A stretch of DNA of 64,000 nt from Candidatus Lutacidiplasma silvani (GCA_022750295.1 JAKIVZ010000003.1:51616-115615); one strand, 5' to 3'; numbered from the stretch's first letter, positions 47,853-62,279 are shown. Translations and numbers: made by a program. Notes: generated by a model not told the origin, from the letters alone.

Positions 47853-48365
47853 ATGGCCCGCTCGCCTCTAGCTTCCTCGAGGTTCCCTATGTCGTATCGT
47901 GAATCCGCCCGTCGTGTTCCCCCCTCCGGCGCGCCCGACGGCATGTGCGCCCCGGGCGAGGCGTCGCTCTGCCCCGTCCTGGCCGCCGTCGGCGTGATCG
48001 GCACCGAATGGCGTCTCGCCATCGTGCACCGGCTGCTCGCCGGCCCCCAGCGGTTCAGCGAGCTCCTCCGGTCCAACTCCCGCCTGAACGCGAAGACGCT
48101 CAGCGCGACGCTGAAGTTCCTCGAGAACTCCGGCGTGGTCCAGCGGACGGTCGTGAGCACGCGTCCGTTCTCCGTCGTCTATTCCCTGACGGAGATGGGA
48201 CTCGGGCTCGCCCCCGCGGCCCGCGAGCTCCGGGCGTGGGGCGAGCGCTGGCTCCTCCCGCGCGCGGCCTCGGGACAGCGCCCACCGGTCCCGCGGACTC
48301 CCGCCATCCAGGGCGAACTCCCGCGGATCGTCGTCTCCGACAGCCCGATCCGGCGCGCCTCCTAG
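47853..48365 (+). CDS. HxlR family regulator (start may be 47889 or later)
   Basis: CPVLAAVGVIGTEWRLAIV..L..GPQRFSEL, KTLSATLK.LE, VYSLTEMG. Confidence 0.88.
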   Translation: MARSPLASSRFPMSYRESARRVPPSGAPDGMCAPGEASLCPVLAAVGVIGTEWRLAIVHRLLAGPQRFSELLRSNSRLNAKTLSATLKFLENSGVVQRTVVSTRPFSVVYSLTEMGLGLAPAARELRAWGERWLLPRAASGQRPPVPRTPAIQGELPRIVVSDSPIRRAS

Positions 48366-49171
48366 CCGGACTCCGCCGGGCGAAGCGGTCCCTGACGGGA
48401 CCGTTTCGCCCCCTCCCATCCGCGCTTGAAATACCCGGGAGACGAACTTCTTCCTGCAACCACCCCGGAAGGGTCCCCTTACATCCCCAAGGAGACGGCA
48501 CCGCGTCTCGGGAGTGCGGGGGACCCTTCCAACCCCCCCCTCGTCGGAAGGTCCCTGTCCTGTTCGTTTCTCATCGTACCGTTCCCCGCGAGGCTCGACC
48601 CGAATCGATCCCGCACGCCACTTCCGAGGCCGGCATCGAAGCCCGATTCTCCGCTCCGAGGCGCGACTTCGGCTCGGCGGCACCGTTCAACGTTCGGGCT
48701 CGTGCGAACGAACCACTCCCCCGGAGTGCTCGTCCCGTCCGCACCCCCGAACGAGGATCGACCGGTACCCCGTCGCGAGGCCCCGCTCTCCGCGGCCCAT
48801 CGCCACGTCACCGCTCGCGCCTCCGAATCCCCACGGCCCGCTCGGTCGACGCGACCCCCGTCGCTTCGCCCGACCTGGCCAACGACCGGACCCGACGACC
48901 GGCCGGAGCGAGGGACCGCTCTGACCTCCGCCGCGCGCTGAGCGGGAACGCTACCGGGAGACGGTAGCGGCGTCCCCGGCCGGCGAGTCGTCCGATCCGC
49001 GATCTTCCCGGTGATCCCACCGGACCCGGAACTCCCCGCGTCGCCGCCCGACCCCGGGCGGCGGCCGGACGTCGGGGAGGACCGTCGACCCACCGACCGG
49101 ACGGGCCGTCGCCCCGTCCCCGAGCGCCCCCCGGTCGGTCGTCCGACGGCCGGGGGGCAGGATGGTTTCGA

Positions 49172-49489
49172 ATGTCGTCGTCGCGAAGCGCCGTACGGCG
49201 CCCCCCAGAACCGGTTCGTCTCCCCATCGCCGAACTCGCCCCGTCGTCCGGCCGCGTCCGTCGCCTCGGCCGGATCCGGCTTCCGCTTTCGCTCCGCCAG
49301 CGCCCCTGGGCGACCGCGTACCGGCTCCCCGACGGCCGCACGATCTGGTGCGTGCGCCTCTGCCGGGACGGCGAGGTCGTCCGCTCGGTCGTCTCGACCG
49401 CGACCCTTCGCGCCTACGCCGGGCGCTCCGGCCTCGACGGCCTCGCCGAGGCCGTCGACGCCATCGTCGGAGCGGAGGTCGTCCGGTGA
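49172..49489 (+). CDS. Small hypothetical protein coupled to the VirD4-like ATPase
   Basis: PWATAYRLPDGRTIWCVRL; its TGA overlaps the GTG start of the ATPase. Confidence 0.6.
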   Translation: MSSSRSAVRRPPEPVRLPIAELAPSSGRVRRLGRIRLPLSLRQRPWATAYRLPDGRTIWCVRLCRDGEVVRSVVSTATLRAYAGRSGLDGLAEAVDAIVGAEVVR

Positions 49490-52089
49490 CCGCCGACCGC
49501 CCGACCTCCGCGCTTTGGTTCGAGCCGCGCAGCGACACCTGGTCGGGAGAGTTCCTCGGCCGGCTCGCCTCGCTCGCCTCCGCCGCCCCGTTCGGGACCG
49601 GCTGGCTCGTCGCCCGGCGCACCGGATTTCCCGGTGTGGCCGTGGTCGGCGGCGACCGGGTCGCCCGCGAGGTGGCGGTCGCCGCGGCCGGTCCCTGGCC
49701 CGGCCGGATCGCCACCGTCGGTTCCGCGGTGTTCGGGGTTCCCGACCCGGCGGACCGGTTCGCGGCGCTCGCCCGCCCCGGCTGGGGGTGGCGGTCGCCC
49801 GACCCGGCCGAACCGGCGCCGGGGCCGCGCCCTGTCGAGCCGGTCCGCCCCCGACTCGAGGTCGCGGTCCCGTCGGCCCGCCCGTCCGGTGGGCGGCAGT
49901 GCCATTGGTTCTCGACGGGCACCGGGCGGCTCGCGGTGCGGGTCCGGGTCTGGGCCCGGGACGACCGGTGCTCGCCGTCTGGGTCGCTCGCGCGTCTCGC
50001 CGGCGACGCGCTCGAGACGCTCCGTACCGCGGGAGTGCCGGCCGAGCTCCGCGAGCTCCCGAACACCGCGCGCCGCCGGGACGCGTGGGGGGGTGGCCGC
50101 GTCGGGTCGTTCGCCGCCGGCCCGCTCGAGCGGTTGACCCCGGGGGTGGCGGCCGCGGTCGCGCTCGGGCCCCGTCCGCCGGTCGTCCTCGACGACGTGG
50201 CGGTCGGTCGCCACATCGTCGTGGTCGGGGCGTCCGGGGCGGGGAAGACCTCGCTGCTCGCCGAGGTCGCTGCGAACCGGGTCGAGCGGGGCGCGCCGGT
50301 CGTCGCGTTCGACCTGCACGGCGACCTCGCGCCCGCGATCGCGGCGCGCCTCACGCCCCCGGCGCTCGCCCGCCTCGTCGCCATCGACGCCGGCGGGCCG
50401 CTCGACCGGATCCCCGGCGTCCGGCTCCTCGGCGAGGTCGGCCCGGCCGACGCCGGACCGGCCGCCGCCCACGTGGTCGCCGCGCTGAAGCGGCTCACTT
50501 CCGACTCGGGGGACGTCTACTGGGGGTTCCGGCTCGAACGGACCCTCGACGCGTTCGTCCGGCTCGCCCAGGAGGAGGGCGGTGGCCTCGTCGACGTCTA
50601 CGCGCTCCTCACCGACCCGCGGCGGCGGGACGCCGCCCGGCTGACGACCCGGCAGCCGGCGCTCGCCGCCTTCCTCGACGAACTTCCCGCGCTCCTGCGG
50701 CGGAATGCGGAATACCTGGCCCCCGCGACGGCCCGGGTCGCCAAGGTCGCCCTCGCGCCCCGGATCGCCCGGCTCCTCGACCCGGACGGCCCCGGGCTTC
50801 CCGTCGTCCCGTTGCTGGGCGCGGGGCGCTCGATCGTCTGGCGGATCCCGTTCGCCGACCTCGGCCCGGAGGGGGCGGGGTTCGCCGCGACGCTCCTCGC
50901 CACGCACGTGTACCTCGCGCTCGCCTCGCTCGGGGCGACCGCGGACGGCGCGGTGCGGGCGGCGTTCGTGGTCGACGAGGCGTCGTCGATCTCGCCCCGG
51001 CTCCTCGCGGAGATCCTCGCCGACGGACGGAAGTTCGGGGTGGGGGCGGTCGTGGCGACGCAGTACCCCGGTCGGCTCGCACCGGAGGCCCGGGCCGCCG
51101 CGGAGGGGGCGGCCGGCACCCACGTCGTGTTCCGGGTGCCGGCGCCGGTGGCGGCCGCCACCGCCGAGTGGGCGGGGCTCGACCGGTCGGCCGAGCCGCT
51201 CCTCTCGGCGCTGCCGGACGGGACCGCGGTCGCGGTCCGGTCCGGCGACGGCGGATCCCGCGGCGCGGTCGACGTCCGGGCGGGGAGCGCCGACGGTGGG
51301 GTCGCGTGGGAGTCGGCCCGCGCGGCGAGCGCCGAGGCGTGGGGGGCCCCCGGAGACGATCGGGGGGACGCCGCTCGGACGCTGACCGACGCGGTCGCGT
51401 TCGCGCTCGCCCCCGGGCCGTGCGAGTTCCCGACGTTGGTCGAGCGGACCGGGGCGGCGCTCGGCGCCCCCGTCGATCCGGCGGCCGTCGCGGCGACCGT
51501 CGAGCGGCTCCACCAGCGCGGTTGGGTCGCGGGAGACTCCCGCCACGTCGACCTGACCGACGCCGGGGCCCGGTACCTCGGGGTCGGCGCCCCGACCGGG
51601 GCGACGAGCGAGGGCGCGGAGCACCGGGCGCTCCTCTACGCGACGTTCGCGATCCTCGCCCGCCGCGGGGCCCGTCTCGACCTCGTCCGTCAGGGCGGGT
51701 TCGACCGGCGGCTCCCCGACGGGGTCGTACGGCTCCTGCCTGCGGGGGCGGGGGACCGGTCGCCCGGCGAGCTCGACTTAGCGATCCGGGCGGCCCGCAC
51801 GACGTGGGCGTGGCGGTCGTTCGGCGGTCGGGACGCCGATGTCGAGGCGGAGGTGAGCGGCGCCGTACGGCCGGACCGGATCCGCCGGAACCTGGAGAAG
51901 GCCCGGAGCCGCGGACACTTTGCGCTGTTCGTGGTCGCCGACCCGGCGAAGGCCCGGAAGGTCCGCTCGGTCCTGGCCGCCGAGGGGGTCGGCGTCCGCG
52001 ACGCTCAGGTCTGGACGGTGTCGCGCGCCCGGATCGCGGGCGGGTCGTCGACGGCCGCGTCCCGGGGGGAACGCGGGGCCGGCCCGTGA
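49486..52089 (+). CDS. VirD4/TraD/HerA-like ATPase with C-terminal wHTH and putative PD-(D/E)xK nuclease domain
   Basis: Walker A GASGAGKT, FDLHGDL, YWGFRLE, Walker B FVVDEA, GRKFGV..VVATQ; C-terminal EHR...LPDG...VEAE...IRRNLEKA. Confidence 0.82.
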   Translation: MTADRPTSALWFEPRSDTWSGEFLGRLASLASAAPFGTGWLVARRTGFPGVAVVGGDRVAREVAVAAAGPWPGRIATVGSAVFGVPDPADRFAALARPGWGWRSPDPAEPAPGPRPVEPVRPRLEVAVPSARPSGGRQCHWFSTGTGRLAVRVRVWARDDRCSPSGSLARLAGDALETLRTAGVPAELRELPNTARRRDAWGGGRVGSFAAGPLERLTPGVAAAVALGPRPPVVLDDVAVGRHIVVVGASGAGKTSLLAEVAANRVERGAPVVAFDLHGDLAPAIAARLTPPALARLVAIDAGGPLDRIPGVRLLGEVGPADAGPAAAHVVAALKRLTSDSGDVYWGFRLERTLDAFVRLAQEEGGGLVDVYALLTDPRRRDAARLTTRQPALAAFLDELPALLRRNAEYLAPATARVAKVALAPRIARLLDPDGPGLPVVPLLGAGRSIVWRIPFADLGPEGAGFAATLLATHVYLALASLGATADGAVRAAFVVDEASSISPRLLAEILADGRKFGVGAVVATQYPGRLAPEARAAAEGAAGTHVVFRVPAPVAAATAEWAGLDRSAEPLLSALPDGTAVAVRSGDGGSRGAVDVRAGSADGGVAWESARAASAEAWGAPGDDRGDAARTLTDAVAFALAPGPCEFPTLVERTGAALGAPVDPAAVAATVERLHQRGWVAGDSRHVDLTDAGARYLGVGAPTGATSEGAEHRALLYATFAILARRGARLDLVRQGGFDRRLPDGVVRLLPAGAGDRSPGELDLAIRAARTTWAWRSFGGRDADVEAEVSGAVRPDRIRRNLEKARSRGHFALFVVADPAKARKVRSVLAAEGVGVRDAQVWTVSRARIAGGSSTAASRGERGAGP

Positions 52090-52637
52090 GCCGCCGACGT
52101 CGCCCGTTCGGCGGTCGCCCGGTGCCGGAGCTCCTCGCCGACCGCCTGGCTCAGGTAGGCGAGGCCGGCGTCGTTCAGCCGGTCGAGGTGGAGGAGGAGG
52201 TAGTGGAGGTAGATCCGTTCCGGACGGTGCGACGGGCCCGGGGACCGACCGGGGGGCGCGGAAGCGCGGGCCGGATCCGGAGCGACGGTCGCGAGCGTTT
52301 CGGCGTGGTGCTCCGCCTCGGACCCGTGGAGCGCCCGTCCGGTCGCCCCGACGAGGGGAGGATAGACGTGGCCGACCGGGTCGACCGGTTCCTCCGGGGC
52401 TATCTCGGCGGCGCGCGCGGCCGCCGCCGCGGCGGCGTCGAGCCGCCACTGCATGTACGGGTGGGTCGGCCGGTTCGGGTCCTGGAACTCGGCGATCGGC
52501 CGTCCGCCGACGTCCTCGACGATCGACTTCAGGCTCCAGCTATCGCGCCGGCGGCCCGGGCCGTCCGGGGTGGCGACCGGCTCCGCGGACACGAGGGGGG
52601 CGAGCCCCGAGCCCGACTCATAAACGTGGTGTTCCAT
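52005..52637 (-). CDS. Hypothetical protein, last gene of the T4SS-like operon
   Basis: From MEHHVY; PERIYLHYLLLHLDRL; overlaps the VirB4 3' end. Confidence 0.6.
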   Translation of the reverse strand: MEHHVYESGSGLAPLVSAEPVATPDGPGRRRDSWSLKSIVEDVGGRPIAEFQDPNRPTHPYMQWRLDAAAAAAARAAEIAPEEPVDPVGHVYPPLVGATGRALHGSEAEHHAETLATVAPDPARASAPPGRSPGPSHRPERIYLHYLLLHLDRLNDAGLAYLSQAVGEELRHRATAERATSAAHGPAPRSPRDAAVDDPPAIRARDTVQT

Positions 52638-54285
52638 CGGGCGGGTCGTCGGCGTCCGGGGCCCGCCGGATGGCCCTACCAAGGAGCTCGAACTCCGGGG
52701 TCGACGCGACCACGGCGACGGGAAGGTGCGACGGCCCGAACCGCAGGAGCCCCTCCGAGTACCCCGCCTCGCGGGGGAGCCGGCACTGCGGGAGCCACGC
52801 CGCCTCCGCGTCGGTGAGGGCGAAGAACCGCCGGGTGGCGTCGGAGACCTCCGCGAGATGCAGGAGGAGGGTCGCCCGGAGGTTCCGAACCAGCGACCGG
52901 CCCCCCTCGGTCGAGAGGAAGTCGTCCGGGTTCTGGCTGAGGACGAGGACGCCGGTCCGGTAGTGCCGGACGTGCCGGACGAGCCGGTCGAGGAACTCGG
53001 CGGTCCGCGGGTCGCGGGCGAGGAGGTGGGCCTCGTCGATCACGAGCAGCTTCGGCCGGTCGTCGCGCCGGATCCGGCCGTAGATCGCGTCGAGGACGAC
53101 CGCGAGGTGGAACGCCCGCTGCTCGGTCGGCACCGCGTGGAGGTCGAGGACGAGCGACCCCGGGGGCGGCGGGGCCGCGGCGCTCGAGTCGAGGTACGCG
53201 AGCGAGCCGGAGACGAACACCTCGAGGAGGCCGGGGAGTCGGCCGGGGGCGTCGGAGCTCCGGACGATCGCGGCGAGCTTGGCGAACGTCGGGGTCGCGG
53301 CACCGGCGAAGAGCCGGGCGACCGACGCGTCGAGGAGCGCGACCTCCTCGTCGGCGAGCGACGGGAACGCGGCCCGGAGTGCGGTGACGACCCGCGACGC
53401 CTTCTCCGCCACGTCGCCGCCCGTCGACCCCGGGTCGAGCGGGTGGAACCGGGACGGCGCCCCCGGCCCGACGCCGACGACCGTCGCCCCGAGCGGACCG
53501 GCGAGCCCCGCGAACTCCCCGAGCGGGTCGACGACGTACACCTCGAGACCGTCGGTCATCCACCGGGTGCGCAGCGCGAGGAGCCCCGCGGCGAACGACT
53601 TTCCGGACCCGGTCGCGCCGAAGATCCCCCAGGAGTACGACCCGTGCCGCCACCGGTCGAGGAACACGGGGGCCGCGTCGTCGAGGAGGAGGCCGACCAG
53701 GACGCCGCCGGGCTCGGCGACCGCCTCGTCGACGAACGGAAAGAACGCGGCGACGGCGTCGGTGGGGAGGGTCTGCCAGTACCCCATCGGCCGCGGCTCG
53801 CTCCCGTCGAGGGCCGGCGGCGCCGCGGCCGCGGCGGTCTGGTAGTGCGGGATCGAGGCTCCGAACCCGAGCGCCGCGAGCCGTCGGACGAGCTCGGCCC
53901 GCTCCCGCTCGAGCGCGGCCGGGCGGCCGGCGGTCGCGTGGAACGAGACGCCGACGCGGAACAGGTGCTGCTCGTTCGCCGCGAGGCGGCGCTCGAGGTC
54001 GTGGGCGCTTTCGGCCTCGAGCTCGATCTCGGCGACCTCGCGGGTCGCGCCGGAGGCGATCTCCGCCTCGGCGACCGCGGCCGCCGACCGGACCATGTCG
54101 ACCGCCCGGTCCCGCGCGATCCGGTAGAGCTGCATCCGGAACTCGAACGCCCGGCTCGTCGGCAGGACCCGCGAGAGGAATCCGAACGGCACCGCCTTGG
54201 GGAGCCGACGGACGAGGACGGGACCGTCGAGACGCCCGCGCCGGACCACGAACTGGGGGGCCTCGTGGTCGGGGGGTTCGCTCAT
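52618..54285 (-). CDS. virB4: VirB4/TraC-like ATPase
   Basis: AAFFPF, PVFLDRW, Walker A GATGSGKS, VVDPLGEF, Walker B LLVIDEAH, RHVRHY..VLVLSQ.P.DF. Confidence 0.88.
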   Translation of the reverse strand: MSEPPDHEAPQFVVRRGRLDGPVLVRRLPKAVPFGFLSRVLPTSRAFEFRMQLYRIARDRAVDMVRSAAAVAEAEIASGATREVAEIELEAESAHDLERRLAANEQHLFRVGVSFHATAGRPAALERERAELVRRLAALGFGASIPHYQTAAAAAPPALDGSEPRPMGYWQTLPTDAVAAFFPFVDEAVAEPGGVLVGLLLDDAAPVFLDRWRHGSYSWGIFGATGSGKSFAAGLLALRTRWMTDGLEVYVVDPLGEFAGLAGPLGATVVGVGPGAPSRFHPLDPGSTGGDVAEKASRVVTALRAAFPSLADEEVALLDASVARLFAGAATPTFAKLAAIVRSSDAPGRLPGLLEVFVSGSLAYLDSSAAAPPPPGSLVLDLHAVPTEQRAFHLAVVLDAIYGRIRRDDRPKLLVIDEAHLLARDPRTAEFLDRLVRHVRHYRTGVLVLSQNPDDFLSTEGGRSLVRNLRATLLLHLAEVSDATRRFFALTDAEAAWLPQCRLPREAGYSEGLLRFGPSHLPVAVVASTPEFELLGRAIRRAPDADDPPDGTPRL

Positions 54286-54635
54286 CGGTCGCCCTCCCCG
54301 AACGGGGGGACCGTCCGGGTCGTCCACGCGAGCGCGAACGTCGTCGCCCCGAGCAGCGCCCCCCGCACCCCGTCCCACGGGGGGCCGGCGAGGAGCGCGA
54401 ACGCGCCGGCGACCCCGACCGACCCCGCCACGGCCCAGTTGGTCGCGGCCCGACGGCCGCCGCGCGGGGAGACCCGGGACGCCCACGCGACGAGCGAGAT
54501 CGCGGCGAGCGCCCCGGTCAGCCCAACGAAGTACGGCTCGACCAGCGACGCGGTCCCCGCGAGCGCCGCGAACCCGCCCGACGCCCGGAGCGGGTCGATC
54601 CCCGTCGGGGCGCGGAGGAGGTCCGCGAACTTCAT
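54282..54635 (-). CDS. Small membrane protein in the T4SS-like operon
   Basis: From MKFADLL; 3-4 hydrophobic helices; ATGA overlaps on both sides. Confidence 0.65.
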   Translation of the reverse strand: MKFADLLRAPTGIDPLRASGGFAALAGTASLVEPYFVGLTGALAAISLVAWASRVSPRGGRRAATNWAVAGSVGVAGAFALLAGPPWDGVRGALLGATTFALAWTTRTVPPFGEGDR

Positions 54636-55408
54636 GCCGACCCCGGGGGCCGGAGATCGAGCCGGTCGAGCTCGGACCGGAGGTCGGACCCGGTCAGGCG
54701 GTCGGCGGCGACACCGAACGTACGGAGCGCTTCGAGCGTCGCGGCGAGCCGCACCTCGAGCCGGGCGGCGCCGGCCGGGTCGGCCGGCTCCCACAGGACG
54801 AGCGCGACGCGACGGACCCTCCGACGGCGGAGCAGGAGCTGGACGACGTCGGAGTACCCCGCGCGGGCGAGGGATTCGGCGGGCCCGCTCGCCGGGGGAG
54901 CGACCGGCCGGAACGGCCCCGGGTCGACCGATTCGGCCCGGGCGACGAGGTAGAGGGGGCCGTCCAACGCCGCGAGCCACCGTCGGGCCAGCTCGAACAG
55001 CGCCCGCGCGTCGGCCGGTGGCAGGTACTGGACCGGAACGCCCCCGGTCCGGACGACGGCCGCCACGCGGGCCCCCACGACCCGCATCGTACGGGCCCCG
55101 GCCCGGGTCGGACGTCCGGCCCCGCGCCCGCCCGGCCGGCGGGTGCGGCGCCGCCAGCGCCACCCGAGGTAGCCCGTGACCCGTTCGTCGAGCGACCGGC
55201 CGTCCCGTCGGTGGACGGCGACGACGAAGCCGAGGGCCGCGAACGGAACGATCGCGACCGGGCCCGCGAGCGGCATCGCGACGAGCCCGGCGGCCGCGAA
55301 GCCCGCGAACTTGAGCGCGTCCCGGGCCGACGGGAACGGACCGAGATGGAGCCGCCGGTCGACCGGTCGCGGGATCGCGACGGTCCAACTCTCGCTCTCC
55401 TCCGGCAT
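54632..55408 (-). CDS. PrgI/VirB3-like membrane protein
   Basis: IPRPVDRRLHLGPF, two TM helices, DGRSLDE; position upstream of VirB4. Confidence 0.65.
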   Translation of the reverse strand: MPEESESWTVAIPRPVDRRLHLGPFPSARDALKFAGFAAAGLVAMPLAGPVAIVPFAALGFVVAVHRRDGRSLDERVTGYLGWRWRRRTRRPGGRGAGRPTRAGARTMRVVGARVAAVVRTGGVPVQYLPPADARALFELARRWLAALDGPLYLVARAESVDPGPFRPVAPPASGPAESLARAGYSDVVQLLLRRRRVRRVALVLWEPADPAGAARLEVRLAATLEALRTFGVAADRLTGSDLRSELDRLDLRPPGSA

Positions 55409-55412
55409 CGGT

Positions 55413-56555
55413 TCACCACTGGTCCGTGAGCGGCAGGGGCTTCGGACCGTCGACCCCCGGGAACTTCCGGGCGGCGGCGGCGAGCCGGGACCCCTTCAGG
55501 TGACCGAACATCGCCTCGGCGCCCCGCCCGAGCCCCTCGGCGGCGAGGAGCGGGGCGGCGAACGGGATCGGGGCGCGCGCCACCGTGGCGCTCACCCCCT
55601 GGACGGCCCGGGCGGTGCCGGCGGAGCGGCCCGACGCCGCGAGCGGTCGGACGATCGACGTCGCGCCGGCCGAGACGGCGGCGAGTCCCCGCTCGACCCC
55701 GCCCGTCAGCGCCGACCCGGCCGACGGGAATCCGATCCGGCCCAGCTGGACCCCCGCGACGTTCAGCAGCGACGGGGCCCCGAGGGCGATCGTGAGGTAC
55801 GCGACGAGGAGGAGGATCGAGGGGGCGCCGACCGCGAGCTCGAGCGGGACGACGACGACGACCGGGAGGAACGCGAGTTCGCCGAACAGAAGCCACGACC
55901 GCCGCGCGAGCGGGGCGAGCACGGGGATCGGCGCGAGGAGGCTGAACGCGGGAAGGAGGACGAGGAGCACGGCGAGCATCGCATCCCGGGCGGCAACGGC
56001 GATCGCGAGGAGGAGCACGAGCGAGAACAGCACGAACGAGAGGACGAACGCGAGGAGGCCGTTGTCCCAGTAGTACCGGAGCCCGGCGACGCCGGTCAGG
56101 TTCACCCACGACTGCCAGGCGCCGCCGTCGAAGCCGGCCACGACCGGGTACACCGCCCCCGCGAGGTCGAGGATCGCCGCGGCGACGGGGAGCGTCACGT
56201 TCGCGAGGACGATCGAGACGACGAGCCGGGGGAGGAGCGACTCGAGCCGGACCCGGGTGGGCGCGGTGACGGCCCGGGCCAGGTAGACCGCGCCGACCGC
56301 GAGGACGACGAGGGCGACCGCCGGGTCGACGACGTTCGCGACGAGGAACTCGGAGAACCGGGCGGCGAGGGCCAGGAACGACGACGAACTCCCCGCCCCC
56401 GGTCCGAGCAGGATGGGGTACGCGGCGCCGGGAAGGAGTTCGGGGACGAGGAGGTCGTTGTATGTCGGCAGGGTCACCGCCCACAGGACCCCGGTCAGGA
56501 CCGCGAACAAGGCGAACACCACGGCCTGGACGACCGACGAGACCGACGCGCCCAT
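55413..56555 (-). CDS. VirB6/TrbL/CedA-like polytopic membrane protein
   Basis: About 7 TM; RLVVSIVLAN; ARDAMLAVLLVLLPAFSLL; Gly/Ala-rich C-terminal tail. Confidence 0.72.
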   Translation of the reverse strand: MGASVSSVVQAVVFALFAVLTGVLWAVTLPTYNDLLVPELLPGAAYPILLGPGAGSSSSFLALAARFSEFLVANVVDPAVALVVLAVGAVYLARAVTAPTRVRLESLLPRLVVSIVLANVTLPVAAAILDLAGAVYPVVAGFDGGAWQSWVNLTGVAGLRYYWDNGLLAFVLSFVLFSLVLLLAIAVAARDAMLAVLLVLLPAFSLLAPIPVLAPLARRSWLLFGELAFLPVVVVVPLELAVGAPSILLLVAYLTIALGAPSLLNVAGVQLGRIGFPSAGSALTGGVERGLAAVSAGATSIVRPLAASGRSAGTARAVQGVSATVARAPIPFAAPLLAAEGLGRGAEAMFGHLKGSRLAAAARKFPGVDGPKPLPLTDQW

Positions 56556-56563
56556 CGGGCCTC

Positions 56564-56932
56564 CTAGCCGCCGGTGAGGACCCACTGGGCGAGGCCCCAG
56601 ATCAGTCCGGAGAGGGCGGCGGCGAACAGGAGCGTGCCCACGAGCGCGTCGCGGGCCCGGTCCTTCGCCTGGATCTTCTTCGTGACGTCGTTCGAGAACC
56701 ACGAGAGCGCGACGCGGGCCCACACGATCGCGAGGAGGCCGCCGCCGGAGAGCCCGAGGAGGACGACGATCCGGTGGACGACCTGGGAGAAGTTCGCGAC
56801 CGCGGAGTTGTTCGTGACCGCCGAACGGACGGTCGAGTGGGGACTTCCGACCGGGGTCGGGGGAGCGGCCGCGCCGGCGAACCCGGCGACGAGGACGACG
56901 GCGGCGAGGACCCCCGCGACGGCCGCGTTCAT
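56564..56932 (-). CDS. VirB2/TrbC-like conjugative pilin
   Basis: Signal peptide then two hydrophobic helices separated by a charged loop (WFSNDVTKKIQAKDRARDALVG). Confidence 0.72.
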   Translation of the reverse strand: MNAAVAGVLAAVVLVAGFAGAAAPPTPVGSPHSTVRSAVTNNSAVANFSQVVHRIVVLLGLSGGGLLAIVWARVALSWFSNDVTKKIQAKDRARDALVGTLLFAAALSGLIWGLAQWVLTGG

Positions 56933-58743
56933 CCGTCCTCCGGGAGGGAAGGGCCGGGAGTCGCCGCGGGCCCGACCGCCGGGGTCGGGGAGGCGACCCA
57001 TCGAACCACCTCCCGGCCATCCCCGTCGTCCTCGAGGCGGACCCGACCGGCCTTCTGCCAGGCCGCGATCCCCCGCGCCACCTCCTCCGTCGAGACGTGG
57101 CGTTCCTCGGCGAGGAGCTCCAGGGTCGACCGGTCGATCCCATCGTCGGCCCCGGCGAGGAGTTCGCGGACGACCGACCGACCGGCGGTCCCGGCGGCCG
57201 GGGGGTCGCGCCGGGGCCACGGCCATCGGACCCATCGACGGACGACGAACCCCCCGAACAGCGCGAGCAGGGCGCCCGCGATGGCGCCCCCCAGCAGCCA
57301 GCCGGCGCCGATCGAGGGGGCGGTGGGGAGCGCCGGCCCCGAAGGGGCGACCCCGGCGCCGGCGACGTAGAGCGTGAACGTGACGTTCGCCGCCCGGCCG
57401 GTCGAATCGGTCACGGAGCCGCGCAGGGTGAGGTACCCGGCGGCGACGGGTTCGGCGGTCCACGGTACGACCCCCGTCGACGAGACGTTGCCCGCGGTCG
57501 ACTCCCCGTCGGAGAGGCTGAGGGCGTACCGGTACGGGGGGAGCCCGCCGGAGATCGTGGCGTGGACCGGAACGCCGGCCCCGGCGAGGGGGGCGCTCGT
57601 GCCGAGGGCGACCGTGAGGTTCAACCCGGGCGCGACGTCGACCGTGACGTTCGCGCTCGCGGAGAGGCCAGACCCGTCGACGACCGTGACGGGGAGCTCC
57701 ACCGTTCCCGGCTGGTCGAACGTGACGGCGAGCGCCAACGTGCCGTCCGAAGCCAGCGTCCCCTCCGAGGGAGACTCGGCCGAGACGTCCGCGACCGGGG
57801 GAATCGACCAAGCGAACGGCGGGGTGCCATCCGCGACCTCGACCGAGACCGCGGTCCGGTAGCCGACCTCCGCGAACGGCACGCTCGCCGGCGCGAGGAC
57901 CGGCGGGGCCATCGCCCGGCCCACCGGGGTGAGGCCGTCGAAGCTTCGGTTCCAGGAGTCGATGACCGACCCGAGGACCCAGACGGGTCCGGGCGCGACC
58001 GGGACCACCGCGAGGGCGTACGTCCCGTCCGACGGGACGATCGCCGAGCCGTTCGACTCGCCCCCGGAGAGGAGCCAGTGGAGGGTGAACGGCCCGGCGC
58101 CGCCGGTCAGGTTGGCGTCGAAGACGAACGGTACCCCGACGTCCCCCAACCCTCCGGAGCTGCCGAGTTCGAGGAACGGCGGAGCCACGACGTCGATGTT
58201 CGCCGTCGCCGACGCCGTCTCTCCGTTCTCGTCATGGACCTCGAAGAGGACGGCGACCGTGCGGGCTGCGTCGGGCGCCGTCCAGTGGACCGACCAACCG
58301 TCCGTTACGGTGCCAAAGCTGAGGATCCAGAACGGGGTCTCCGTCCCCAGGCCCCCGGTGGCCGAACCGCTGAGGGTCACCGTGACCCCGACATCGACGG
58401 TTTGCGGAGCGCTCTCGATGTGGGCGGCCAAGCCGTCCGGGGCCACGGACCCCGAGACCGTCCGGGCCGGGCGAGGGGTCGACGCGTTCCGGGCGGCGCC
58501 GGGGACGGCCGACGCGCCCGACCGAAATTCGGACGCCGTCGCCCGCGCCGTCCCGGTCGAGGGTTCGGATCCCGCGCGCGGGCGACCCGGCGCGCCCCGA
58601 ACCGTCCGGTCGTCGTGCCCGACGAGGGGGGCGGTTCCGCCCGGTCCCGAGAGCGGGAGCGCGGTCAACAGGAGCAGCACGGCAACGGGTCCGACCAGCC
58701 AGGCATCCACGGTTCGCGTCGAGGGCGTTCGCACAGCAACCAC
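56929..58743 (-). CDS. Ig/PKD-like repeat surface protein with TM and cytoplasmic wHTH-like tail; first gene of the T4SS-like operon
   Basis: Signal peptide; GG..P(F/Y) Ig repeats; TM; GIDRSTLELLA...WQKAGRV; ATGA overlap with the pilin. Confidence 0.75.
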   Translation of the reverse strand: MVAVRTPSTRTVDAWLVGPVAVLLLLTALPLSGPGGTAPLVGHDDRTVRGAPGRPRAGSEPSTGTARATASEFRSGASAVPGAARNASTPRPARTVSGSVAPDGLAAHIESAPQTVDVGVTVTLSGSATGGLGTETPFWILSFGTVTDGWSVHWTAPDAARTVAVLFEVHDENGETASATANIDVVAPPFLELGSSGGLGDVGVPFVFDANLTGGAGPFTLHWLLSGGESNGSAIVPSDGTYALAVVPVAPGPVWVLGSVIDSWNRSFDGLTPVGRAMAPPVLAPASVPFAEVGYRTAVSVEVADGTPPFAWSIPPVADVSAESPSEGTLASDGTLALAVTFDQPGTVELPVTVVDGSGLSASANVTVDVAPGLNLTVALGTSAPLAGAGVPVHATISGGLPPYRYALSLSDGESTAGNVSSTGVVPWTAEPVAAGYLTLRGSVTDSTGRAANVTFTLYVAGAGVAPSGPALPTAPSIGAGWLLGGAIAGALLALFGGFVVRRWVRWPWPRRDPPAAGTAGRSVVRELLAGADDGIDRSTLELLAEERHVSTEEVARGIAAWQKAGRVRLEDDGDGREVVRWVASPTPAVGPAATPGPSLPEDG

Positions 58744-58849: not shown

Positions 58850-59500
58850 CTACGTTCCGACGAGGAGCGCGAGGTGCTCCCGGGAGAACGGCCCGAGCTC
58901 GGTGGCGAAGACGACGCGGTGACCGGCGGCGGCGAGTTCGCGTCGAGCGGCCCGGCCCACCTCGGCCGGGGGAAGACGCTGGGTGACGGAGCGGGTCTTC
59001 AGCATGAGGAGCCCCCGCCGCGCCCGGCACACCGAGGCGTTCTCCTGGTAGATCCGGGTCTGGTCCCGCTGGGCGACGTCCTGGTACAGGAGGTCGACCG
59101 GCCCGACGTCGGCGGCGTACCGCTCGGGGAGCTGGGCGTCCGCGAGGATCGGAAGGATGTTCGCCCGTCGGCGCGCGAGGGCGAGCAGCGGAGCGAACAC
59201 GGTGGGGCTTTTTTCGATGGCGAAGATCGTCGCGTCCGGGAGCGCGTCGGAGAGATGGCTCACCGTGGTGCCGTGCGCGGCCCCGAGATAGAGGACGGTC
59301 CGGACCCCGTCGAAGAGCGGCCCCGACGGCGACTTCGTCAGGTACGCGGCCAGCTTGGAGCGCCACGGGTCCCAGAGCCGGAACTCCGCCCCGGACTCCG
59401 ACCGGAGCTCCTCCCCGTACACCGATTCGCCCGGCACCGCGTTCCGGGTGTACAGGTCCCGGCCGATCCGGAAGACGCCGGGCCACTCGGTGGGTTCCAC
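58850..59500 (-). CDS. flpA: Fibrillarin-like rRNA/tRNA 2'-O-methyltransferase
   Basis: SVYGE, RLWDPWRSKLAA, VLYLGAAHGTTVSHLSD, NILPILADA, YQDVAQRDQ. Confidence 0.95.
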   Translation of the reverse strand: MEPTEWPGVFRIGRDLYTRNAVPGESVYGEELRSESGAEFRLWDPWRSKLAAYLTKSPSGPLFDGVRTVLYLGAAHGTTVSHLSDALPDATIFAIEKSPTVFAPLLALARRRANILPILADAQLPERYAADVGPVDLLYQDVAQRDQTRIYQENASVCRARRGLLMLKTRSVTQRLPPAEVGRAARRELAAAGHRVVFATELGPFSREHLALLVGT

Positions 59501-59511
59501 GGATGGCGTCC

Positions 59512-59976
59512 TCAGCCGAGTCGCGCGAGGAGCTCGACCTCGACGCAGGCGCCGAGGGGCAATGCGGGTACCCCCATCGCCACGCGTGCGGGGCGACCGT
59601 TCTCGCCGAAGACCCGGATCAGGAGTTCCGTCGCCCCGTTGCCGACGTCCGGGTGCTGGGTGAACTCGGGCGACGACGCGACGTAGACGGCGACGCGGAC
59701 GATCTGCCGGACCCGGTCGAGCGTGCCGAGTTCGGCCTGGAGCGCGCTTAGCGCCTGGAGCGTGGCCTGCTCGGCCGCCGCCCTCGCCGAGGGGAGGTCC
59801 ACGGTCGTGCCGACGACGCCGGGATGGAGGAGTTTCCCGTCGATCCGGGGAATCTGGCCCGAGACGTACGCGTGGTCGCCGTCGACGACGACCGGCCGGT
59901 ACGTCCCGGCCGGGGGCGGCGGCGGGGGGAGCGTGATCCCGAGCTCGCGCAGCCGTTCGGCGACCCCACCGGACAT
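59512..59976 (-). CDS. RidA/YjgF family protein
   Basis: YVSGQIP, VGNGATELL..VFG..GRPARVAMGV..LP...CVEVE. Confidence 0.9.
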   Translation of the reverse strand: MSGGVAERLRELGITLPPPPPPAGTYRPVVVDGDHAYVSGQIPRIDGKLLHPGVVGTTVDLPSARAAAEQATLQALSALQAELGTLDRVRQIVRVAVYVASSPEFTQHPDVGNGATELLIRVFGENGRPARVAMGVPALPLGACVEVELLARLG

Positions 59977-60076: not shown

Positions 60077-60565
60077 ATGTCCGGCCTCCTCCGCCGGTTC
60101 CGCCGTCCGAAGCCGAAGGACGAGGACGACGAACCGGCCGCGACTCCCTCTGGCGGCGAGGTCGAGGAATCGGACATCTACCCGCACCGGGGCCCCGCCC
60201 GCTCGGGGGACCCGGATATTGAGCCGGCGCCCGAACGTCCGAGCCCCGCCCCGTCGGACGACGAAGGGGTCGCCCCGTCACCGGCGGTTCCGGACGAGAT
60301 CGGTCCGGCGCCGACCACGGAGCCGCAAGGTTCGGAGCCCCATACCGGGCCGGATGCGTCTCCGGCCGCGCCGGCCATCGAGCCCGTCCCGGTCGAGCCG
60401 GGGGTGGAGGTCCCGATCTCCGCCCCGCCCCCGCTTCCCGAGGCCGAGGCGGGAAGTGGCCGGAACGTGCACCGCCCGCTCAGCGCGCCCACCCGATGCT
60501 TCCTCTGCGGGACCGAGATGAACGGCTCGTTCTGCCCGACGTGCCGGATGAGCTGGAACGACTAG
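60077..60565 (+). CDS. Acidic Pro-rich protein with C-terminal zinc ribbon
   Basis: CFLCG...FCPTC at the C-terminus; disordered-looking body. Confidence 0.65.
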   Translation: MSGLLRRFRRPKPKDEDDEPAATPSGGEVEESDIYPHRGPARSGDPDIEPAPERPSPAPSDDEGVAPSPAVPDEIGPAPTTEPQGSEPHTGPDASPAAPAIEPVPVEPGVEVPISAPPPLPEAEAGSGRNVHRPLSAPTRCFLCGTEMNGSFCPTCRMSWND

Positions 60566-60644
60566 TCCGTCGTTGGGGGAGGGGGCGACCGTCGTCCCCG
60601 CGGGGCTCCCCCTCATATGGGCGGGAGCCCCCTCGGAGGGGTCC

Positions 60645-62279
60645 ATGCCGGGCCACGCTTCTCCGTCGGTGGAATTCGACCAGCTCGAGCGGGACGTCGT
60701 CGACCACTTCTTCGAGCTCCAGCCCGGGTACGCCGTCTTTCTTGGCCTCCACCAGTACGACGGCCGAGTCCCGGACCTCTCTCGCGCCGCGACCGACGCG
60801 TGGGTGGCGAAGGCCGACACGCTCCTCGCCCGCCTGAAGGCGGTCGGCTCGGCGGAGCTCGCCCCCGCCCGGGCGATCGACCGGTCGCTCCTCGAGCTCC
60901 TGCTCTCGTCCCCCCGCTTCGACCTCGTCGACAGCCGCGACCTCGAGCGGAACCCGATGACGTACGTCGGCGGGATCTCGCTCACGCAGTACATGGTCCG
61001 GGACTACGCGCCGGTCGCCGACCGGGCCCGGGCGATCGTCCAGACCCTCGAGGCGGCCCCGAAGATGCTCGCCGACGGCGCCCACCGGTTGGACGCGGTC
61101 GTCGCGAGGCCGTTCCTCACGCTCTCGCTCGCGATCGGGAGTGGGCTGGCGTCCCACTTCGAGGAGGCCGAGGCGTTCGCCCGGAAGGAGTCGGGCACCC
61201 TCGGCGACCAGGTCCACGCGGCCCGGGAACGGGCCGACGCCGCGGTCCAGGAGTTCCTCGCCCGGATCCGGAGCGAGTGGATGCCGAGGGCCACCGACGA
61301 CTTCGCCCTCGGGGCGGAGCGGTACCAGAAGCTCCTGTGGGTCCGGGAGGGGATCCGAACCCCGTTCGAGGAGATCCGCCGGTCCGGCGAGGCCGACCTC
61401 GCGCGTAACCAGGCCCGCCTCGAGGCGATCGCGGGCGGGCCGGGGGGGGTCGCGGAACGGTTCGAGACGCTGTACCAAGACCACTCGACCGCGGCCGACC
61501 TGGTCCCGACCGCCCAGCGGTTCGTCGACGAGACGAAGCAGTTCGTCCGGGACCACGACCTCGTGACGATCCCGGAGCCGTCGTTCTGCCGGGTCGAGGA
61601 GACCCCGACGTACGGCCGGGCGCTCTCGACGGCCAGCATGAACCCTCCGGGACCGTTCGACGTCGGCCGGGCCGACGGAATCTACTTCGTGACGCCGGTC
61701 GACTCCGCGTGGCCGGCCCCGCGCCAGGAAGAGTGGCTCCGATCGTTGAACCGGGTGATGCTGAAGAACATCACCGTGCACGAAGTCTGGCCGGGCCACT
61801 ATCTCCAGTTCCTCCACTTCCGGCACTCGGTCGGGTCGCTCACGCGGAAGGTGTTCCTCTCGCCGTCGTTCACGGAGGGGTGGGCCCACTACTGCGAGCA
61901 GCTCGCCATCGAGGCCGGGATCGGCGGGACCGACTGGAAGGCGGAGGTCGCTCAGATCCACGACGCCCTCCTCCGCGATTGCCGGCTCCTCGCCTCGATC
62001 GGTCTCCACACGGGCGGGATGACGCTCCCGGAGGCGACCCAGCTTTTCGTCGACCGGGCCCACTTCGAGCAATTGCCGGCGGAGCGCGAGGCGATCCGCG
62101 GCACGTTCAACCCGGAGTACTTCTGCTACACGCTCGGGAAGCTCCGGATCCTCGAGGCCCGCGAGGCGCTCCTCGACCGGGAGTTCCACGGCTCGCTGAA
62201 GGCGTTCCACGACCGGCTGCTGTCGACCGGGGCGCCGCCCGTCGGCTTGCTCGAGACGCTGCTCACGGTCCGAGGCTAA
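60645..62279 (+). CDS. DUF885 family putative metallopeptidase
   Basis: HEVWPGHYLQ, FTEGWAHYCE, YTLGKLRI, KAFHDRLL..G..P. Confidence 0.9.
   Translation: MPGHASPSVEFDQLERDVVDHFFELQPGYAVFLGLHQYDGRVPDLSRAATDAWVAKADTLLARLKAVGSAELAPARAIDRSLLELLLSSPRFDLVDSRDLERNPMTYVGGISLTQYMVRDYAPVADRARAIVQTLEAAPKMLADGAHRLDAVVARPFLTLSLAIGSGLASHFEEAEAFARKESGTLGDQVHAARERADAAVQEFLARIRSEWMPRATDDFALGAERYQKLLWVREGIRTPFEEIRRSGEADLARNQARLEAIAGGPGGVAERFETLYQDHSTAADLVPTAQRFVDETKQFVRDHDLVTIPEPSFCRVEETPTYGRALSTASMNPPGPFDVGRADGIYFVTPVDSAWPAPRQEEWLRSLNRVMLKNITVHEVWPGHYLQFLHFRHSVGSLTRKVFLSPSFTEGWAHYCEQLAIEAGIGGTDWKAEVAQIHDALLRDCRLLASIGLHTGGMTLPEATQLFVDRAHFEQLPAEREAIRGTFNPEYFCYTLGKLRILEAREALLDREFHGSLKAFHDRLLSTGAPPVGLLETLLTVRG

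Follow-up and report, generated by a model that had tools for sequence, protein, structure and literature searches.

A chromosomally fixed, conjugation-type secretion operon in Lutacidiplasmatales archaea: a candidate machine for DNA exchange

We analysed a 64-kb stretch of DNA (64,000 nucleotides; hereafter the window) from Candidatus Lutacidiplasma silvani, a member of the class Thermoplasmata that lives in soil and has not been cultured. The locus of interest lies at 49172-58743, where an earlier note, made from the sequence alone, had recognised a minimal conjugation-like type IV secretion system (T4SS). It holds a seven-gene operon on the minus strand, with genes for a VirB4 ATPase, a VirB6-like membrane protein, a pilin candidate and an immunoglobulin (Ig)-repeat protein, and a convergent pair of genes on the plus strand, the second of which encodes a VirD4/HerA-like ATPase. 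Here we describe the products of these genes, their chromosomal setting and distribution, and the function that the operon is likely to have.

The operon and its products

Genes were called by the GC content at the three codon positions and then checked against the translations of open reading frames (ORFs), because at a GC content of 62-79% in the window most of the long ORFs are spurious. All genes of the locus had third-position GC (GC3) values of 0.84-0.90 and a GC1 higher than the GC2, which is the coding pattern of this 72% GC genome. Every gene that the earlier note had named was recovered in its place with this host-type pattern, and its description of the locus as host-like in GC was also borne out by the codon usage. 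The operon consists of the following genes, in the order of their transcription.

56929-58743, minus strand: Ig-repeat protein, 604 aa
56564-56932, minus strand: VirB2/T4SS-type pilin candidate, 122 aa
55413-56555, minus strand: VirB6-like polytopic membrane protein, 380 aa
54632-55408, minus strand: p258, the putative membrane-anchored N-terminal piece of VirB4, 258 aa
54282-54635, minus strand: small membrane protein, 117 aa
52618-54285, minus strand: VirB4 ATPase body, 555 aa, Walker A motif GATGSGKS
52005-52637, minus strand: soluble protein, last gene of the operon, ~210 aa

The junctions among these seven genes are 4-nt overlaps, gaps of 4-8 nt or a 20-nt overlap. The genes between 52005 and 58743 form a tightly and translationally coupled operon, as had been proposed.

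The VirB4 protein matched the NCBIfam model conju_CD1110 with an E-value of 3e-34 (model positions 215-733 of 752). With 118 bits, under the equivalog cut-off of 325, the match assigns the protein to the family but does not make it an equivalog. The protein also matched the NCBIfam model of the Mbov_0397 ATPase of integrative and conjugative elements (ICEs). A profile made from 18 VirB4 homologues found the solved VirB4 C-terminal domain (4ag5) in the PDB with an E-value of 3.7e-39, and the motif G-x-x-G-x-GK[ST] is invariant in the VirB4 alignment. VirB4 is present in a single copy in this genome. On the strength of these sequence matches the identity of VirB4 is secure, and the protein would be the motor of the machine.

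The p258 protein has a membrane hairpin (aa 34-66) followed by a soluble domain. It had been taken for a PrgI/VirB3-like protein. The PrgI match proved to be weak (4 of the 21 family members, E 0.11 or worse), and the part of that assignment that stood is the hairpin, together with a match to the NCBIfam model SCO6880_fam in 7/21 members (best E 7.4e-6). A search of the PDB sequence profiles with the p258 profile gave 0 matches. A second VirB4 copy from another genome of the same family (L191; G085:C43:1-6324, a short contig) is one open frame of 867 aa. The p258 profile was collinear with residues 4-281 of this frame (hhalign: 237 columns, probability 70.5%, E 3.9e-5; hmmsearch: 5.7e-10), and residues 313-838 are VirB4. 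Because the fused frame aligns with both proteins, p258 and the 555-aa protein together appear to be one VirB3-VirB4-type ATPase that has been split in two. No detectable match was obtained when p258 was aligned by hhalign with the N-terminal part of the longer VirB4 that occurs in family f20. A protein database search for longer fused forms of p258 found none, which is weak evidence; the L191 fusion comes from a genome of the same family.

Additional VirB4 genes were observed elsewhere in the family. The genomes G085, G092 and G094 (genera g21 and g23) have two to four VirB4 matches each, and a further copy in G085 lies within an open frame of 1447 aa (L192; G085:C152:1-12036). The extra copies in these two genera could belong to modules akin to the fixed operon, either mobile ones or paralogues.

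Neither the 380-aa protein nor its family had a meaningful Pfam match, and no sequence family could be assigned. Its AlphaFold2 model was built from 25 homologues (pLDDT 71.5). In a Foldseek search against 350,542 chains, ranks 1-6 were all occupied by entries of the R388 stalk (TrwJ/VirB5-TrwI/VirB6), with E-values of 0.07-0.5 and probabilities of up to 0.97. With VIA-align against 48,161 chains, 7o3v_F came first (Z 9.8, 210 residues aligned, root-mean-square deviation 5.3), Legionella DotA (9ngy) came second with Z 9.7 and the third match reached only Z 7.0. We take chain F of 7o3v to be TrwI/VirB6 from its residue range. The VirB6-like assignment was upheld by this structure search, T4SS membrane subunits being at the top with both programs. 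The model points to a VirB6 fold, though not beyond doubt, and the protein is a candidate for the translocation channel or for the base of the pilus.

In the pilin candidate, a variable leader is followed by two hydrophobic helices with a basic loop, KKxQAKDRARD, between them, as seen from the alignment and the hydropathy profile; it also has a conserved N-x-S/T sequon at N47. Among the 25 members of the family, 10 matched PF18895 (T4SS_pilin; best E 7.9e-5) and 2 matched TrbC/VirB2. The AlphaFold2 model is a helical hairpin (pLDDT 77). No match (0) was obtained with the pilin profile against the PDB sequence profiles. The family matches and the hairpin model are compatible with the proposal that this is a VirB2-like pilin; the fold searches, discussed below, did not discriminate.

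The Ig-repeat protein starts with a hydrophobic segment, continues with Ig-like repeats (Pfam Big_9, E 2.1e-6; NCBIfam tandem-95 repeat, 2.8e-8) and ends with a transmembrane helix (aa 477-502) and a cytoplasmic tail of ~100 aa. It carries 8 N-x-S/T sequons. Its gene is the fastest-evolving one of the operon (27-58% identity; ratio of nonsynonymous to synonymous substitutions, dN/dS, 0.28-0.41), and no tblastn match was obtained in 3 of the 17 loci compared within the genus. In the genera g21-g24 (5 loci) the Ig genes of the operon are larger or multiplied. This protein is a candidate adhesin or mating-partner recognition factor.

The small membrane protein has a hydrophobic segment, and its gene overlaps both neighbours by 4 nt. 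It was matched by tblastn in 3/17 genus loci (48%, 42% and 37% identity), and the remaining loci keep a gap of ~350-450 nt between p258 and VirB4; its position is conserved and its sequence poorly so. The last-gene protein, on the other hand, is present in 17/17 genus loci and is always the final gene of the operon. It has three conserved motifs in the alignment and a dN/dS of 0.16-0.36, and showed no Pfam match and no transmembrane segment.

Chromosomal site, inheritance and distribution

The operon is flanked on its upstream side by the following genes.

58850-59500, minus strand: fibrillarin-family methyltransferase, second paralogue (fib2), Pfam Fibrillarin E 1.4e-51; context and not part of the machine
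59512-59976, minus strand: RidA, directly upstream of the fibrillarin gene
60573-62279, divergent: DUF885

We compared loci of ~20 kb from the same genus and found the order DUF885 / RidA-fibrillarin-(Ig)-pilin-VirB6-p258-VirB4-last gene in 17/17 of them. The far flank in 16/17 consists of an N6/N4 DNA methylase followed by HPS/RraA. The same site was occupied in 3/3 full-length loci of the genera g25 and g26, so that one site is found in 20/20 full-length loci of three genera (g1, g25 and g26). The order of VirB4, p258, pilin and VirB6 is kept in the family at this one chromosomal site in the three genera, under purifying selection.

The neighbouring fibrillarin gene had been regarded as flpA. 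A fibrillarin gene does end 106 nt upstream of the Ig gene; it is the second paralogue and does not serve as a core-genome marker. This genome (G000) has two fibrillarin genes (C11:50824-51465 and the one on C19, the contig of the window), which are ~46% identical to each other. Two copies were also found in 4/5 genomes of other genera, and the duplication is family-wide. The second paralogue adjoins the operon only in g1, g25 and g26. We rejected it as a part of the module, as it is unlinked in the four genera g21-g24 (none within ~9 kb of the operon, 5 loci); in g22, g23 and g24 there is no fibrillarin copy on the contig that holds VirB4.

Two other features of the surroundings were observed. 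The gap between RidA and DUF885 (window ~60083-60565, plus strand) encodes a small protein that combines an acidic low-complexity region, rich in proline, with a zinc-ribbon-like C-terminal end, CxxC...CxxC. The N6/N4 DNA methyltransferase is the convergent neighbour of the last operon gene in g1, g25 and g26 (L022:7594-8448), and a distant methylase (28% identity) adjoins VirB4 in another family, in G054 (L038:8097-8801). A functional link of the DNA methylase to the operon is possible.

We then compared the tree of VirB4 with that of the unlinked archaeal elongation factor 2 (aEF-2), encoded on other contigs, for 20 genomes. This is the congruence check that the earlier note had called for. 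The two trees had 6/17 splits in common; label shuffles gave a mean of 0.30 and 0/2000 of them reached 6. The patristic distances were correlated with r = 0.89 (0.755 without the outgroup), and 0/5000 permutations of the Mantel test reached this value. VirB4 evolves about four times faster than aEF-2. From five genome pairs we obtained dN/dS values of 0.08-0.33 for the pilin, VirB6 and VirB4, 0.13-0.43 for p258 and the last gene, and 0.08-0.30 for the flanking DUF885, RidA and fibrillarin genes, the dS being similar in the operon and the flanks. The operon is under purifying selection comparable to that of its housekeeping flanks.

These data bear on the alternative that the locus is the remnant of an ICE or plasmid that has come to lie near housekeeping genes and is still mobile or is decaying. 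Several observations agree with such an origin: the CD1110/ICE type of VirB4, the further VirB4 copies on short contigs of G085 and other g21/g23 genomes, the patchy distribution by family in the class, and in-frame stops or frameshifts in a few metagenome-assembled genomes (MAGs; G022, G025 and G032). Against it stand the single site in 20/20 loci, the concordance with the aEF-2 tree, the flank-like purifying selection, the host-like GC and codon pattern and the single copy of VirB4 in the genome. The 2.1-Mb assembly has one tyrosine recombinase, on another contig (C16). We found no att-like direct repeats flanking the locus; all the repeats were of at most 86% identity, with no exact flanking repeats. 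The nearest tRNA genes are at window positions 871 and 21748. The relaxase families PF03432, PF08751 and PF02486, the three that were searched for, had no match in the 91%-complete genome. On all these grounds, with no integrase on the contig, no att-like repeat and no member of the three relaxase families, the locus is very unlikely to be an ICE or a decaying remnant. The earlier note had reported similar absences, and the fixed site speaks against the variable, integrase-flanked occurrence that it had named as the opposite outcome. Archaeal conjugative elements in general are not known to have recognisable relaxases. The operon is a chromosomally fixed, vertically inherited and relaxase-less T4SS-derived unit.

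VirB4 was detected in 32/36 other species genomes of the same genus. When all genomes of the genus were considered, 132 of the 149 others had it, as did 161 of the 179 others of the family (Lutacidiplasmatales/UBA184), with all 7 genera represented; these genus and family tallies take in G019, G192 and G193, three genomes flagged as unpublished, and none of our claims depends on these three alone. The VirB4-negative genomes of the genus are mostly incomplete (completeness 56-93%), and five of them also lack a linked DUF885 and a linked fib2. In G002, the one case checked, the absence is a contig end, ~120 nt after a flank match of 94% identity. Loss of the operon was rejected for this genome, and for the other four an assembly gap is as likely as a loss. 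Many MAG contigs were observed to break within a few hundred bases of the VirB4/last-gene end of the operon (e.g. the end of G002:C7, G006:C24:203, G033:C38:207, G024:C54:257 and G034:C61:6). Such breaks inflate the apparent absences, and they may be due to strain-level variation beside the locus.

At the level of the class, we sampled 300 Thermoplasmata genomes that are at least 80% complete. VirB4 relatives were distributed among the families as follows.

f1 (this family): 40/44 genomes
f20: 38/38 genomes
f21: 5/5 genomes
f10: 7/8 genomes
f15: 3/6 genomes
f3: 1/2 genomes
f17: 1/33 genomes
all 24 other families sampled: 0 (e.g. f6 0/33, f8 0/40, f27 0/23)

Alignment profiles recovered the order pilin-VirB6-(p258)-VirB4 in loci of f20, f15, f10 and f3, which have GC contents of 30-56%; none of these loci had been used to build the profiles. 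In the f21 loci only p258 and VirB4 were detected. Two genera of f20 have common flanks around the module.

Some of these loci are unusual in their pilin genes. Between the genera of the low-GC family f20 (L178-L181) the pilin is 53-63% identical, as against 28-40% for VirB6 and 26-31% for VirB4. This holds even between two genera whose flanking genes are at 42-84% identity. In G054, a single-contig Thermoplasmata genome of 1.49 Mb from another family, five to six tandem pilin paralogues are located upstream of VirB6-p258-VirB4 (L038; G054:C1:1005700-1025300).

None of the RNA sequencing runs listed holds the operon, and seven soil/rhizosphere DNA runs hold at most 0.29 of the sampled words.

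The VirD4/HerA-like ATPase pair

The plus-strand pair that converges on the operon consists of two genes.

49172-49489, plus strand: small ORF, 105 aa, codon-position GC 0.75/0.62/0.88
49486-52089, plus strand: VirD4/HerA-superfamily ATPase, 867 aa, GTG start

The stop codon of the small ORF overlaps the GTG start of the ATPase gene, an arrangement of translational coupling. By tblastn the small ORF was found directly upstream of the ATPase in G023 (63% identity) and in G036, G022, G069, G003 and G001 (40-51%). It is a real and conserved partner of the ATPase. The ATPase is composed of an N-terminal domain, a P-loop core, a winged helix-turn-helix (wHTH) and a conserved acidic C-terminal domain. 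Pfam TrwB_AAD_bind and DUF87 matched the window protein at the P-loop only; one homologue (P0008) matched TrwB_AAD_bind over residues 230-552 (~320 residues; E 5e-8), and several homologues carry a wHTH and HVO_A0261_N. The matches in the PDB were weak and confined to the P-loop, with HerA-type helicases and TrwB being of equal strength. Unlike the canonical membrane-anchored coupling proteins, the ATPase showed no transmembrane segment in its hydropathy profile. The C-terminal part had scores of 0.76 in the ESM Atlas, with no families and no structure; its acidic motif may be nuclease-like. In all, no membrane-anchored coupling protein of the VirD4/TraG/TcpA kind was found, the sole candidate being soluble, equally close to HerA and TrwB and without an ancestral link to the operon.

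The pair is present in 48/60 genomes of the genus and in 20 of the 21 high-quality ones. Among the 17 same-genus loci, the convergent layout of the operon and the ATPase is common only to G023 and the window. Elsewhere in the genus the pair lies 27-200 kb from the operon (on the same contig in 11 genomes) and has its own conserved upstream neighbours, namely a major facilitator superfamily (MFS) gene, a 219-aa protein (hyp219), HxlR and the small ORF. Comparison of the gene order of G036 with that of G000 revealed an inversion, carried by G023 as well as by G000, with breakpoints exactly at the 3' ends of the ATPase and methylase genes (dn200/ATPase and methylase/hyp). The inverted segment is ~53 kb (window 1-52089; G000:C19 about 50.3-103.7 kb), since the methylase and HPS/RraA are now at C19:50.3-52.4 kb, just to the left of the window. 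As a result of the inversion, the 3' end of the ATPase gene overlaps that of the last operon gene by 85 nt (52005-52089). Inverted repeats were sought at the end points and only short chance matches were found. The pair is a separate conserved unit that adjoins the operon here by an inversion in this lineage, and the two may be linked in function.

The small ORF and the ATPase had originally been read as integral parts of one machine with two ATPases. Besides the convergent adjacency in G000 and G023, this reading can draw on the equal frequencies of the two units in the family (VirB4 and the full-length ATPase are each found in 40/44 genomes of f1 in the class sample), on their occurrence on one contig in the 11 genomes mentioned, and on the long TrwB_AAD_bind match of one homologue with the wHTH and the conserved acidic domain. 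We consider it rather unlikely. The adjacency is derived, the ATPase keeps its own neighbours and lacks a membrane anchor, and its P-loop matches do not separate TrwB from HerA. Furthermore, the full-length ATPase (E 1e-20) was found in 2/2 genomes of f3 but in only 1/38 of f20, 2/8 of f10, 0/5 of f21 and 0/6 of f15, although the VirB4 module is present in these families. The claim of two ATPases in a single system was not sustained.

Upstream of the pair we observed a conserved non-coding element at window 48381-48530 (plus strand), in the interval that separates HxlR (47853-48365) from the small ORF (49172-49489). It has 72-88% nucleotide identity in 9 genomes of the genus, which is above that of the neighbouring coding DNA. 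It includes an inverted repeat or hairpin (48381-48408), a TATA-like sequence (TTGAAATA/TTCAAATA) at ~48429 and a 64-nt stem-loop (48467-48530). RNAalifold gave 35 pairs, 14 of them with compensatory changes. No Rfam family matched at the gathering threshold, and the E-value mode returned rows of chance level only. The element could be a small RNA, a promoter with an operator, or a structured 5' leader of the unit that the small ORF forms with the ATPase.

Relation to known systems and proposed function

Ced and Ted of the archaea are domesticated T4SSs with a trio of pilin, VirB6-like and VirB4-like proteins that serve for DNA import (PMC9905601, Beltran et al. 2023). In the Ced-type systems CedD and CedE are added, homologues of VirB3 and VirB8 are absent, and a VirB4 N-terminal domain is covered by CedB and CedD between them (PMC11868833).

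Ted (Thermoproteales; TedC pilin, TedA VirB6-like, TedB VirB4) is, like the operon described here, chromosomal and relaxase-less. It has the same trio: a pilin (in the operon a candidate) whose signal sequence looks cleavable, a VirB6-like protein and an ATPase of the true VirB4 clade. Genes for HerA-like ATPases lie close by or at other places in the genome. The function of Ted was itself assigned from Ced. It belongs to a different phylum, and we compared it by its description. Unlike Ted, the operon has a split VirB4 with a VirB3-like hairpin on the N-terminal piece, an Ig-repeat adhesin gene inside and no ParA/VirC1 or Rad50 neighbour, and its host lives in mesophilic acidic soil and not in hot springs.

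Ced (Sulfolobales/Desulfurococcales; CedA, CedA1, CedA2, CedB, CedD and CedE) resembles the operon in being domesticated. Its components include CedA1 as the pilin, for which the operon has a candidate, CedA as the VirB6-like channel and ATPases of the VirB4/HerA-like kind, and its motor is likewise split over two polypeptides, CedB and CedD. The operon differs from the Ced type in that its split VirB4 has a VirB3-like hairpin on the N-terminal piece, VirB3 homologues being absent there (PMC11868833). The NCBIfam models of CedD and CedB gave 42 and 23.5 bits, against cut-offs of 600-700, over P-loop stretches only. The ATPase of the operon is of the VirB4 CD1110 type and does not belong to the CedB/CedD clades, and no operon protein matched the CedA or CedA1 models at E <=0.1.

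The closest VirB4 sequence matches are in the monoderm mating-pair formation (MPF)-FATA T4SSs (CD1110/Tn916-ICE type, with PrgH/VirB6, PrgI/VirB3 and T4SS_pilin). The operon further resembles these systems in the PF18895 matches of some members of its pilin family, in the weak PrgI/SCO6880-type matches of the p258 hairpin and in an architecture that suits a single membrane. In contrast to them, the operon is not on a mobile element and is vertically inherited; it has no gene for a relaxase, a membrane coupling protein, an integrase or replication, and genes resembling VirB1 or VirB8 were not detected.

Chromosomal, lineage-wide and mostly relaxase-less T4SSs are also present in Patescibacteria. 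They are FATA-related, have VirB2-like/PF18895 pilins and are thought to be co-opted by their hosts for other roles (PMC12102498). They differ from the operon in being of bacterial, epibiotic hosts, in other components and gene order, and in a proposed role that is not conspecific DNA exchange.

The earlier note knew of no description of this system. We found a partial one: the gene list of Cuniculiplasma has arCOG04034 (VirB4), arCOG05369 (multipass) and arCOG05340 (membrane protein) in one cluster and the VirD4-like ATPase arCOG04816 at a separate locus, listed with no functional reading (PMC5155288). This is probably a module of the same kind, although it is an annotation-level listing, with no claim of domestication or DNA exchange. 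A VirB4 gene is listed for 'E-plasma' (PMC10354927). Conjugation, secretion, VirB, pilus and DNA transfer are unmentioned in the main text of the Lutacidiplasmatales genome paper (PMC9287336). Our full-text search, which left supplements and subscription journals outside its scope, found no paper that reads a Thermoplasmata cluster as Ced/Ted-like.

Taken together, the locus is best explained as a domesticated, conjugation-type (MPF-FATA-like) T4SS that is chromosomally fixed and vertically inherited in Lutacidiplasmatales and that moves chromosomal DNA from cell to cell. We give this explanation as a whole a probability of roughly 55%. Its parts are of different strength. That the operon is a T4SS-derived, host-fixed and functional machine is very probable, and the proposal of a domesticated chromosomal T4SS with its own Ig-repeat adhesin gene held in its core. 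That its cargo is DNA, which follows by analogy with Ced and Ted, is close to an even bet.

In the mechanism that we propose, VirB4 would power the extraction of the signal-peptide-bearing and probably N-glycosylated pilin from the membrane and its polymerisation on a platform of VirB6 and p258. The fast-evolving Ig protein would recognise or adhere to conspecific cells. The pilus or channel would then move chromosomal DNA between the cells for recombination and repair, relaxase-free, as Ced and Ted do.

A number of observations weigh against this explanation. The VirB6 fold match is weaker than would be safe for a helical bundle (Z 9.8 against a caution threshold of ~13; Foldseek E at least 0.07). 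The window's own copy of the pilin had no Pfam match; in the PDB, Foldseek found nothing for it at E <=0.001, with CedA1 (8dfu) at rank 9 (E 2.5), and the wide VIA-align search returned only generic helical hairpins, which fold searches cannot separate. Between the VirB4 and aEF-2 trees 11/17 splits are discordant, mostly poorly supported ones, and in all but the closest of the five pairs the dS approaches saturation. The extra VirB4 copies on short contigs in G085 indicate that mobile relatives may coexist with the fixed operon. Finally, the operon has no relaxase, DNA-binding protein or recombination gene inside, and the co-option of the Patescibacteria systems is a precedent for another role.

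The last two points are also the basis of an alternative in which the same domesticated machine has a cargo or role other than DNA, as an adhesive or aggregation pilus or as a contact-dependent protein translocator. Besides the lack of a DNA-processing gene and the Patescibacteria precedent, in which PF18895 was likewise used for pilin detection, the large and fast-evolving Ig adhesin that heads the operon and is multiplied in g21-g24 would suit such a role. On the opposite side, both of the archaeal precedents with the minimal trio transfer DNA, according to the accounts cited above; the DNA methylase is a convergent neighbour in 16/17 loci, with the distant one (28%) beside VirB4 in another family; and the wHTH-bearing VirD4/HerA-like ATPase is kept family-wide. 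None of these is decisive. We regard a non-DNA role as unlikely, though well short of negligible.

A wider form of the DNA-transfer explanation would make the module a Thermoplasmata-wide, third independent domestication for relaxase-free conspecific exchange, family-wide in at least five families and spanning 30-75% GC. In it the hypervariable Ig protein would set the mating specificity. The DNA would be supplied and fed in Lutacidiplasmatales by the soluble ATPase, which has the wHTH and the conserved acidic, possibly nuclease-like C-terminal domain, together with its small partner. In this extended form we hold it to be doubtful, more so than the non-DNA role.

For the domesticated DNA-transfer machine proposed for Lutacidiplasmatales, the comparison with Ced and Ted defines its significance. 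By that analogy it is likely to be a third archaeal system of cell-to-cell DNA exchange beside these two. Ced and Ted have been detailed so far only in hyperthermophilic Crenarchaeota, and the operon would represent the same outcome in another phylum, in mesophilic soil archaea. It would have been built from a different, monoderm FATA-like ancestor, with an adhesin encoded in the operon and a split VirB4 that bears a VirB3-like anchor, both of them absent from Ced and Ted. The module is near-universal in its own family, and a related one is found family-wide in several further families of the class, which makes it a candidate for a general path by which genes flow among abundant archaea that have not been cultured. 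In any cultured relatives that carry the module, non-crenarchaeal exchange of chromosomal DNA would become approachable by experiment. If the low-GC family in which 38/38 genomes are carriers corresponds to the cultured Thermoplasmatales, the module, if it acts in this way, would explain gene flow among wall-less acidophiles at the molecular level and would offer a system open to direct tests.

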